Source: Pristiophorus japonicus (taxonomy: Eukaryota). From it: a stretch of 64,000 nucleotides of DNA. This document shows positions 4,790-62,297 of this stretch, one piece after another. The position numbers were made by a program, and so were the translations under genes. The stretch is taken from contig NC_091995.1 in the NCBI RefSeq assembly GCF_044704955.1, positions 17,546,001 to 17,610,000 on the forward strand, read 5' to 3'. The notes beneath the pieces are model-generated. The model saw only the letters and a program-made list of their open reading frames with translations. It was not told where the DNA came from and did no database searches. Each line of letters starts with the position of its first letter. The first letter of the stretch is position 1.

Positions 4790-4976
4790 GGTTTCGGCGC
4801 AGTTCTCACAACCGGCGAAGTCAGTTGAAGAATAATTTTGTAGGATCAGTGGATAGAAGTAACAACCCAATTCTAAAGGTAGGCGTGCGCATGATGGAGT
4901 ATGTGACGTGACAGAAACAATTCCCCAATTGACATCAACTGCTTTAGTTTCTTCCCACCCTTGCAAGTACAATGTC

Positions 4977-48200: not shown

Positions 48201-49326
48201 TCTCCACCAATGACCAATTTCATCCCCAAGCTGACCGGCGGTCAGAAATTAGGTAGCAAAAAGTGGCTTATGACAAATCTAAGGTTCATAATAAGAGTCG
48301 AAAACCAGGCTGAATGTAAAAAGTAGAGAGGAGACCCAGAACAGGAATAAGAACATAAGAACATTAAAAAATGCGAGCTGCAGTAGGCCATTTGGCCCCT
48401 CGAGCCTGCTCCCCATTCAATAAGATCATGGCTGATCTGATCAGTGACTCAGCTCCACTTCCATGCCTGCTCCCCATAATCCTTTTTTCCCTTATCACTC
48501 AAAAATCTGTCTAACTCTGCCTTAAACATATTCAATGACCCAGCCTCCACAGCTCTCTGGGGCAGAAAATACCACTGATTTACAACCCTCTGAGAGAAGA
48601 AATTCTTCCTCATTTCAGTTTAAAATGAGTGGCCCTTTATTCTGAGACTATGCCCTATGAGTGGAAATAACTTCTCTGCATCCACCTTGTCGAGACCCCT
48701 CATTATCTTATATGTTTCGATAAGATCACCTCTCATCCCTCTGAACACCAATGAGTACAGGCCCAACTTACTGAACATATCTTCATAGGTCAACCACCTC
48801 ATTTCTGTAATCAACCTAGTGAACCCTCGCTGAACTTCATCCAATGCAAGTATACCCTACCTTAAATACGGAGACCAAAACTGAATGCAGTACTTTAGGT
48901 GCCGCCTCAACAATAACCTGCACAGTGGTAGCAGGACTTCTCTGCTTTTAAACTCCATCGTCCTTGCAATAAAGGACAACATTCCATTTGCCTTACTGAT
49001 TACTTAATGTACCTGCATACTAAAGTTTTGTGTTTCATACACAAGTACCCCCAGGTCCCTCTGATTTGCAGCATTTTGCAATTTTTCTCCGTTTAAATTT
49101 CTATTTTTTCTGCCAAAGTGCATAACCTCACATTTTTCCACACTATACTCCAGAGGGGCAAAGAGAGAGAGGGAGAGAGAATATTAGAACATATGAGCGG
49201 CTAAAATAAAAGGGAACTCAAAAATATTTTATGAACATATACATAGTAAAAGTGTAGTCAAGGATGGGTGCGGCCGATTAGGGACCAAAAGGAAAATATT
49301 CTTGTTCTGGCAGAGGTATCACTGAG

Positions 49327-49558
49327 GGAGGTGGGTGGAGTGGCTTGACCCATCCACCTCCACGGAGGTGTGTGGGGGGCCTGACCCATCCACCTCCATG
49401 GCACGAACCTGGTATTGCAGTACTTCCAGGAACGGTGCAGTGGCTCTCGGCCTTTTGGCTAAGAGCATTGGCGCAGAGTGATCCTTGATGTGTGCAAGGT
49501 GACCTCTGGCGTTTGTGATTTGACAAAGAATTGGAAAGATTGGCAACGAAAAAAAAAA
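49327..49558 (+). mobile_element. Poly(A)-tailed insert built from rearranged U2 snRNA segments (SINEU-like candidate)
   Basis: ACCTGGTATTGCAGTACTTCCAGGAACGGTGCA (49407-49439) corresponds to the U2 3' stem-loop IV. TCTCGGCCTTTTGGCTAAGA (49445-49464) corresponds to the U2 5' end. A10 tail; sits inside a CR1 fragment. Confidence 0.7.
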
Positions 49559-51302
49559 GAATACTTTGCATCTGTCTTCACTGGAGAAGAGGATGCTGCT
49601 AATGTAGCAGCAAAGGAGGAAGTAGTGGTGATATTGGATAGGATATAAATATTTTAAGAGGGGGTACTTAAAAGTTAGGCAGTCCTCAAAGCCAAGTGGT
49701 CCAGGTGGAATGCATCTTAGTTTCCTGAGGGAATTAAGGATGGAAATTGCAGAGGCTTTGGCCACAATCTTCCAAGCCTCGTTAGATATGGGGATGGTTC
49801 CAGGGGACTGGTGGATGGCAGATGTTACACCACAGTTTACAAAAACGGGACAGGAATAAATTTGGTGACTACAGACTAGTGAGCCTGATTTCCAGAAGGT
49901 GCCACATAAGATGTTACTGCACAAGATAAAAGCTCACGGGGTTGGGGGTAATATATTAGCATGGATAGAGGATTGGCTAACTAACAGAAAACAGAGAGTC
50001 GGGATAAATGGTCATTTTCAGGTTCGCAAACTGTAAATAATGGGGTGCCGCAGGGATCGGTGCTGGATCCTCAACTATTTACAATCTATATTCATGACTT
50101 GGATGAAGGGACCAAATGTAATGTAGCCAGGTTTGCTGATGATACAAGATGTGTGAGAAAGCAGATTTTGAGAAGGACATAAAAAATCTGCAAAGGGATA
50201 TAGACAGGCTAAGTGAGTGGGCAAGAATTTGGCAGATAGAGTATAATGTGGGAAAATGTGAGTTTTTCCGCTTTGGCAGAAATAATAGAACAGCAAATTA
50301 TAATTTAAGTGGAAAAACATTGCAAAGTTCTGCAGTACCGAAAGACCTGGGGGTGCTTGTGCATGGAACAAAAAAAGTTATTATGCAGGTTTAGCAAGTA
50401 ATCAGGAAGGTAAATGGAATGTTGGCCTTTATTGCAAGGGAGATAGAGTACAAAAGCAGAGAAGTCCTGCTACAACTGTACAGGGTATTGGTGAGGCCAC
50501 ACCTGGAGTACTGCGTGCAATTTTGGCCTTCGTATTTAAGGAAGGATATACTTGCATCGGAGGCTGTTCAGAGAATGTTTACTAGGTTGAATCCGGAGAT
50601 GAGGGGGTTGACTTATGAGGATAGGTTCAGCAGATTGGGCCTATACATATTGGAGCTCAGAAGAATGAGAGGTGATCTTATTGAAATTGATAAGAAAATG
50701 AGGGGACTCGGCAAGGTGGATGCAGAGAGAATATTTCCACTCATAGGGTAAACTAAAACAAGGGACATAGTTTTAGAATAAGGGACTGCCCATTTAAAAC
50801 TGAGATAAGGAGACATTTCTTCTCTCAGAAGCTTGTAAATCTATGGAATTCTCTGTCCCACAGAGCTGCGGAGGCCGAGTTATTGAATATATTTAAGGCG
50901 GAGATAGACAGATTTTTGAGTGATAATGGTTATGGGGAGCAGGCATGGAAGGAGAGCTGAGTCCATGATCAGATCAGCCATGATGTTATTGAATGGCGGA
51001 GCAGGCTCGAGGGGCTAAATGGCCTACTTCTGCTCTTATTTCTTATGTTCTTAAGTTCTTATGAGCCTAACTTCGGTGGTGGAGAAACGTTTAGCAAAAA
51101 TAAAATGGGTCAAACCTTTACTGGCATTCGGACACGTGTGGGCTAATAAATGAAAGTCAGCACAGTTTTGTTAAAGATAAATCCTGATTGACTAACTTGA
51201 TTGAATTATTTGATGAAGTAATGGAGCGGGTTGATGTTGAGTAGTTTGATTGAAGTGCAGATGGACTTTGAAAAGGCGTTTGACAAAGTGTCACATAATA
51301 GA

Positions 51303-61599: not shown

Positions 61600-62297
61600 T
61601 GTATATGTGTTAATGTAGGCATGTGTGTGAGTGTGTGTATGTTTGTGTCTGTGTGTTTAGCCCTGTGTGTATCTGTATGTGTCTATGTGCGTGTGTTTGT
61701 GTCTGTATGCCTGTGTGTGTCTATATCTGTGTGTATACATCTGTGTGTGTTTGTGTGTGTTTGTCTATGTGTGTCTGTTTATGTGNNNNNNNNNNNNNNN
61801 NNNNNNNNNNNNNNNNNNNNNNNNNNNNNNNNNNNNNNNNNNNNNNNNNNNNNNNNNNNNNNNNNNNNNNNNNNNNNNNNNNNNNNNNNNNNNNNNNNNN
61901 NNNNNNNNNNNNNNNNNNNNNNNNNNNNNATTTATGTGTATCTGTGCATGCGTATATGTGTTTATGTGTATATGTGTGTGTGTGGATATGTGCGTGTGTA
62001 TGTGCGTGTGTATGTGCATGTGTATGTGCATGTGTTTGTGGATGTGTGTGTGTATAAATGTGTTTGTGTATGTGTGTATGTATACATGTATGAGTGTTTG
62101 TTTGTGTGTGTGTATGTGTATATGTGTGTGTATGTGTGTGTTTGTGTGTGTATCTGTGCGTGTGTAGATGTGTGTGTATGTGTGTTTGTGTGTGTGTGGG
62201 TATGTATGTGGGTGTGTATTTATGCGTGTATGTGTCTGATTATAGGGTGTTATTCTATGGCTGTGTATGTGTTTGTGTGTGTGTGTCTGCATGTGTG
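61600..62297. repeat. Degenerate (TG)n microsatellite spanning an assembly gap (N 61786-61929) in the gene B V-TM intron
   Basis: Seen directly; the overlapping CVCV/HTHT ORFs are artefacts. Confidence 0.95.

Follow-up and report, generated by a model that had tools for sequence, protein, structure and literature searches.

A young, multi-copy SINEU-type retroposon family of the shark Pristiophorus japonicus with candidate promoter-bearing source genes in a U2 gene array

The window analysed here, a stretch of 64,000 nucleotides of the Pristiophorus japonicus genome (NCBI RefSeq assembly GCF_044704955.1, contig NC_091995.1, positions 17,546,001 to 17,610,000 of the forward strand), contains a poly(A)-tailed element assembled from pieces of U2 snRNA and lodged in an older LINE, and it raises the question of what such an element is, by which machinery it is moved and from which genes it could be transcribed. 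The initial annotation had recognised two hairpins resembling U2 stem-loop III, a stem-loop IV, the U2 5' end, unrelated sequence and an A-run between 49327 and 49558, and direct checking of the sequence finds every one of these pieces where it had placed them; their origin was left between a U2-derived SINE family and a LINE with U2 hairpins captured in its 3' UTR. The features of the locus, in which family A denotes the SINE family described below, are the following.

49327..49558, + strand: SINE copy of family A, 5'-truncated (nt 121-343 plus A10), 98.7% identical to the full-length copy at L027:1381-1723
49327..49361, + strand: hairpin 1, from U2 stem-loop III, with a 13-bp stem; stem constant and loop variable across subfamilies
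49364..49397, + strand: hairpin 2, from U2 stem-loop III, supported by the fold; together with stem-loop IV 82% identical over 65 nt to host U2 124-186
49401..49438, + strand: U2 stem-loop IV with loop ATTGCAGTAC; 34-nt match, 94% identical to host U2 153-186
49445..49464, + strand: second, internal U2 5' hairpin (U2 7-26); 20/20 to the Rfam U2 model at 7-26 and 22/23 to host U2 7-29
49465..49548, + strand: family-specific tail, related to the tail of family B (match equalled by 0/300 shuffles)
49549..49558, + strand: poly(A), A10
49180..49326 (left end approximate), + strand: upstream part of the older, interrupted LINE ORF2 fragment, joined to the downstream part in homologous copies
49559..51010 (right end approximate), + strand: downstream part of the same fragment, with a broken RT-like translation

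Elsewhere in the window, a run of N occupies 61786-61929. The RNA of the window copy is predicted to fold better than 200/200 shuffles (z -3.8), and when this copy alone was scanned against Rfam the sole accepted match was U2 7-26 (E 0.39), hits to Prion_pknot and to microRNA models being rejected as chance. It is not an isolated sequence: all 40 of the genome matches that were scored, out of 1,267 candidates, are 99-100% identical to it. The interrupted LINE, which we take to be of CR1 type, is represented over 49560-49680 by closest genome copies that are 84-90% identical. In the 19 relatives of the host LINE that were compared, about 9 nt (GTACTAAAT-like) stand at the insertion site and are missing in the window, and the site has therefore probably lost about 9 target bases without gaining a target-site duplication (TSD), as judged from a host copy only 84-90% like its relatives. 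The remark in the initial annotation that no TSD was evident is thus borne out, whereas the 5' boundary that it called uncertain is a point of truncation and not the start of the family.

That the locus is a single-copy template-switch chimera, as the same annotation had allowed, is contradicted by the genome search: the 33-nt junction that joins stem-loop IV, the U2 5' hairpin and the tail has at least 4,791 exact matches, a lower bound on the size of the family, and its reversed control has 0. Followed upstream of the window-copy start, many copies run on for 120 nt and reach ATCGCTTC, with which U2 begins, and a full-length family A copy measures 334-343 nt between its TSDs and begins at U2 +1. 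Its parts are, in order, U2 1-29, U1 3-57 (SL1), a T-tract at the position of the Sm site, the two stem-loop III hairpins, stem-loop IV, U2 7-27, an 85-nt tail and poly(A). The full element is therefore colinear with U2 (5' hairpin, Sm-like site, stem-loop III, stem-loop IV) and not permuted, the apparent 3'-then-5' order of the window copy being due to its truncation at nt 121. For the same reason the window copy has no Sm-like site; full copies have one, so that the absence proposed earlier does not extend to the family, while the absence of the branch-point pairing sequence GTAGTA holds for both the window copy and the full-length copy tested. What the initial annotation had overlooked is the U1-derived part: element nt 36-90 align to host U1 3-57 with a score equalled by 0/1000 shuffles, and the window's subfamily carries an additional piece of U1 28-47. 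U1 sequence thus takes the place of the branch-point region of U2, and a second U2 5' hairpin follows stem-loop IV. Against the Rfam U2 model, full-length copies reach 57-66 bits, and the full-length RNA has a fold z of -4.2; hairpin 1 with the Sm region is, in a full-length copy, 74% identical to host U2 100-147. With GTAGTA lacking and the U1-derived 5' end altered, as is the U1 loop, the RNA of the element, though it retains hairpins of the snRNAs, is predicted to be inactive in splicing.

Two readings of the sequence fare poorly against this structure. Were the copies chimeras that arose independently by template switching, or a U2 pseudogene that had been circularly permuted, one would point to the variable heads of some of them (extra U2 1-44 pieces in L221, L266 and L362), which imply that 5' additions recur; that one internal junction is found at 4,791 places, in copies that fall into diagnostic subfamilies with constant stems and that are colinear with U2 when full, refutes this account, to which we give next to no credence. 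An ordinary processed pseudogene of U2 is likewise excluded by the U1 sequence in the branch-point region, by the extra hairpins and by the tail. The notion of a LINE 3' UTR with captured hairpins draws some support from the U2-targeting LINE Keno, discussed below, which carries its own U2 1-44-like head (L092:8372-8300, minus strand), so that fusions of LINE and U2 do exist in this genome. However, full copies are complete between TSDs from U2 +1 onward, their tail resembles Keno at the level of shuffles only, and none of the copies in the loci examined runs on at its 5' end into a common ORF; the notion is already largely refuted and scarcely credible. Of the two origins between which the initial annotation had hesitated, the SINE family is thus the one that stood, on the strength of thousands of dispersed copies with common ends, TSDs and poly(A).

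The source of the tail was sought in host U1, U2, U4 and Keno, and none matched it better than shuffles; a U4 origin in particular was discarded, its score being equalled in 119/300 shuffles. No tRNA head was found in the element. Pol III promoters are marked by A and B box motifs, and the element has no exact match to either, with one single-mismatch match to each, in the wrong order, and three T4-5 runs. Beside family A we observed a sister, family B, which opens with a near-whole U2 that has lost a short internal piece and continues with U2 2-30, a tail that is shorter than but related to that of family A, and poly(A) (examples are L023:1752-2013, L108, L113 and L093:6088-6610); it retains the target of Keno, and Keno was found inserted within it.

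To describe the family without bias, the first 80 loci on contig C1 were taken from 100 listed junction places, yielding 87 junction-bearing copies. Their 5' starts lie at nt 1-30 in 49 copies, at nt 106-130 in 30 and elsewhere in 8, none of the 87 starting at nt 31-80; truncation beyond nt 30 thus affects 38/87. By an automatic rule, 56/87 copies have a TSD (median 13 bp), as do 23/41 single-copy loci of earlier locus sets. The cluster at nt 106-130, just 3' of the T-tract, holds 30 of the 38 truncated copies (P ~2e-20 against a uniform distribution), and the 5' end of the window copy falls in it. The simple account that an Sm ring blocks reverse transcriptase finds no support in its present form, because the cluster comprises 0/11 copies of the subfamily with the canonical Sm site AUUUUUG as against 30/76 of the rest (Fisher p 0.014, with 17 copies of unclassified tails counted in the rest). 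Stem-loop IV is identical in sequence in 69/87 copies. Subfamilies differ by diagnostic changes while the hairpin stems stay constant and the loops vary, with no compensatory covariation seen on inspection of the commonest variants. The family was also placed in a tree, whose 52 rows are 48 near-full copies, three variants from the U2 array and the window copy, truncated copies being excluded; it shows several young subfamilies, with rough supports, and places the array variants at the tip of one lineage, again with rough supports; this array lineage accounts for 11-13 of the 87 sampled copies. The element is, in sum, a young, dispersed, multi-copy and non-coding family of retroposons.

As to its mobilisation, the U2 tandem array of this genome houses full-length LINEs whose ORF1 has ZCCHC3-type RNA-binding domains and a zinc knuckle, whose ORF2 has APE, RT and zf-RVT domains, and whose 3' end is a poly(A) followed by TCTGTTCTTATCAG at U2 +38, that is, an insertion 37 nt into U2. 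This is the target at U2 +37/38, with the 3' junction TCTGTTCTTATCAG, that has been published for Keno (PMC6136364; PMC4640811). ORF2 is open (1135 aa) in 19 of the 21 array copies checked, and there are 167 exact Keno 3' ends genome-wide; amphibians and fishes have homologues of the protein that are 37-49% identical and to which no Keno name is attached, and its closest fragments lie in Heterodontus gene models. Although no common tail of SINE and Keno was found, the two share targets. Among the first 30 of the 167 dispersed Keno 3' ends, six are directly followed by family A and one by family B, while two lie at a site in Gypsy pol and two at a CR1-type site, both of which the SINE also uses (the CR1-type site in copies L012, L017 and L025); SINE and Keno also form mixed tandem arrays. 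At the Gypsy site, 95 filled copies stand against 7,153 empty ones, with a chance expectation of 0.003, and the 30 filled sites examined hold family A in 23 cases, family B in three, a sister Tx1 element in one and a bare A-tract in three. This hot spot makes up only 3/80 sampled SINE loci, and SINE targeting is loose. Further recurrent sites in abundant repeats were seen with two or three insertions each (L366/L380/L387; L315/L390; L336/L344/L019; L085/L322). The link to Keno at which the initial annotation had guessed is thus borne out by the common target sites, and we consider it very probable that the element belongs to a SINEU-like family whose mobiliser is Keno or a close relative.

Which close relative could be meant is suggested by an older sister Tx1 family (L231-L260), about 83% like Keno and dispersed, with 1,692 first-look candidates. 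It might have been the main mobiliser instead of the array Keno, or the two might have acted in turn: one of its 3' ends, at the Gypsy site, adjoins a family A copy (L111), and three of 30 sister copies lie, by eye, at another hot spot with SINE copies. Yet none of the other 29 occupies the Gypsy site or has family A directly behind it, and the sister copies, at 94-97% identity to one another, are older than the SINE subfamilies, which leaves this alternative very improbable beside mobilisation by Keno itself.

There remains the matter of transcription, which for SINEU, the snRNA-derived retroposons of crocodilians, was posed as an open question, since snRNA genes have their promoters beyond the transcribed part, so that a retroposed copy loses them (PMC4494074). 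Here the U2 genes themselves are informative. Exact junctions of poly(A) with U2 38 number 58, and in the 57 examined they are preceded by family A in 21 cases, family B in seven and Keno in 29, many of the junctions on C9 being segmental copies and hence non-independent. The main array comprises C19:69.62-69.73 Mb as well as contigs C1832, C1868 and C4309; 17 of its family A copies abut the U2 upstream flank with zero spare bases and one additional copy is cut by a contig end. A further copy stands behind the different, C9-type U2 flank. In the 18 flank-fused copies +1 of the SINE coincides with +1 of U2, and on the 3' side poly(A) is followed by U2 38-191, as in Keno. The same stretches, which were selected for holding insertions and overlap slightly, contain about 118 intact U2 units and about 13 units starting with Keno. 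The upstream flank of the array copies is 100% identical to that of the intact array U2 genes; 16 of the SINE copies are identical and two differ at two bases, with A-tracts of about 22 to 110 nt. The 16 identical copies may represent one insertion spread by array recombination. Outside the array, the 16-copy variant, which carries the diagnostic bases C113 and A130, has two dispersed copies genome-wide, both identical to it, and the diagnostic bases of the 2-copy variant recur in nine, seven of them without further change over the aligned part. Most of these dispersed copies have long A-tails, and in none of the 11 is the tail followed by U2 38-191, as would be expected if priming occurs in the A-tract; the identity of array and dispersed copies is compatible with either direction of copying. 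Two of the youngest array-type copies, L227 and L230, appear from their flanks to lie in histone-gene sequence (H4-like and H2B-like by eye).

Several further observations concern the U2 loci. At the C19:69.62-69.73 Mb array end (L161-L171) nearly all units hold Keno, often two in tandem, or SINE, and the unplaced array contigs consist mostly of intact units. In L162 (C19 array, reversed 101824-108053), Keno sits in a SINE-occupied U2 unit at the equivalent of +37/38, with the SINE head replaced. A second U2 gene type, 96% identical but with different flanks, lies at C9:111.0 and 113.4-113.8 Mb (L093-L100, L131-L151); it has by eye a PSE-like stretch at about -61 and occurs in duplicated units of 18-21 kb, behind every one of which stand a remnant of the Keno 3' end and U2 38-191. 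At C14:76.77 Mb (L152:2110-2400, oriented) an orphan U2 unit comprises upstream flank, a Keno head and a single-hairpin SINE variant, whose 12-bp TSD lies within the Keno head. For both types of U2 gene, 400 bp of upstream sequence showed no octamer within one mismatch, whereas the same scan found that of U1; a perfect octamer, ATGCAAAT, stands about 15 nt behind the Keno head in L092, and the array upstream flank is without one. Keno may bring its own enhancer. That the flank has promoter activity we infer because the U2 array is intact and homogeneous.

From these arrangements we regard it as probable, in a model drawn from sequence comparison, that the copies within U2 genes are the source genes of the SINE and that homing supplies them with a U2 promoter. 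The observations beneath it are the family itself, its structure, its TSDs, the targets common with Keno and the copies that coincide with U2 at +1 and end in poly(A) at U2 37/38. Keno, a Tx1-clade LINE, likely copies the SINE; its endonuclease would nick U2 at +37/38, reverse transcription would be primed in the SINE A-tract, and the U2-identical head of the SINE (nt 1-28) would pair with, and replace, the 5' end of the U2 gene. Each insertion at the U2 site would in this way create a new promoter-bearing source gene, transcribed like a U2 gene, with a transcript that would include the A-tract and U2 38-191 and terminate at the 3' box of U2, while most copies would land at looser sites elsewhere and probably be dead ends.

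The same family and the same Keno could alternatively be joined with array copies that are sinks, the source RNA arising by read-through from chance upstream promoters in host Gypsy or LINE copies, in Keno or in tandem arrays, a mechanism that Kojima put forward for SINEU-2 of crocodiles. Exact fusions of the window's head type to the main-array flank number 0 (L131, the only copy of this type found at a U2 site, has an unrelated 5' flank), many copies lie inside other transposons or in tandem (19/60 loci, one locus counted twice), and the array lineage is a minority. Because this lineage is only 11-13/87 copies, most of the family must, on the homing model too, descend from other sources, which have been lost, are missing from the assembly or differ in kind. 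Read-through would, on the other hand, hardly lead one to expect that 49/87 copies have their 5' start in the 30 nt from U2 +1 onward and none at nt 31-80, or that 30 head-selected loci share by eye no 5' extension except target DNA and three duplicated loci, or that the youngest, long-tailed copies match the array variants. Taking both sides together, we judge read-through from chance promoters unlikely, and we retain homing into U2 genes as the preferred explanation.

Among known systems, SINEU-1, -2 and -3 were described by Kojima from crocodilians only (2015, PMC4494074; the definition is repeated in PMC5786205). The present element shares with them, as set out in PMC4494074, a short (<500 nt) poly(A) form with serial U1/U2 heads, snRNA pieces that are partly duplicated internally, runs of oligo-T, copies arranged in tandem around a TSD, a target preference inside another transposon, a Tx1-clade partner close to Keno and, as Kojima noted for SINEU-1, the lack of a common tail of SINE and partner LINE; family B resembles, by description, SINEU-3, with its internally deleted U2 and short tail. 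The element accordingly has the traits of SINEU, namely a U1/U2 head, a short, non-coding, poly(A)-ended body, TSDs with 5' truncation and targets common with a Tx1 LINE. It differs in its host, in its partner, which is the U2-targeting Keno and not Tx1-Mar, in being very young and, relative to SINEU as reported, in having copies within U2 genes at +1 (PMC4494074). The shark element and SINEU presumably arose independently, their likeness being judged from descriptions. Like Keno (PMC6136364, PMC4640811), the SINE has its 3' junction at U2 +37/38 and in this genome begins with a U2-like head that directly adjoins the upstream flank of U2; unlike Keno, it encodes nothing, is without the Keno tail and lies mostly outside U2 genes. 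The nearest mechanistic analogy is offered by the R2 SIDEs of Drosophila, which are non-autonomous, share with their LINE a multicopy RNA gene as insertion target, and whose autonomous partner is expressed as a cotranscript of the host gene (PMC3414825). Whereas R2 SIDEs are LINE deletion products with a ribozyme (PMC3414825), the SINE is built from host snRNAs and dispersed in thousands of copies, and it would use the start site of the U2 gene itself.

Our search of the literature, as distinct from Repbase and Dfam, found no snRNA-derived SINEs beyond crocodilians, and within that scope the element extends such SINEs to a shark. It is a real, young and multi-copy family of SINEU type with candidate promoter-bearing source genes, and the genome offers, side by side, these candidates with their diagnostic bases, daughter copies that match them, and an intact young Keno within the array itself. 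More broadly, and as a conjecture that has somewhat more against it than for it, there may be a class of promoter-less SINEs whose masters are made by homing, with an RNA that would mimic an Sm-class snRNP stripped of the sequences that read splice sites, with turnover of the U2 array driving the succession of subfamilies, and with the nt 106-130 cluster reflecting a protein block or cleavage on the RNP. Two parasites, SINE and Keno, occupy units of the essential U2 gene array, and if the homing model is true it would provide a testable answer to the question of how promoter-less SINEs get transcribed.
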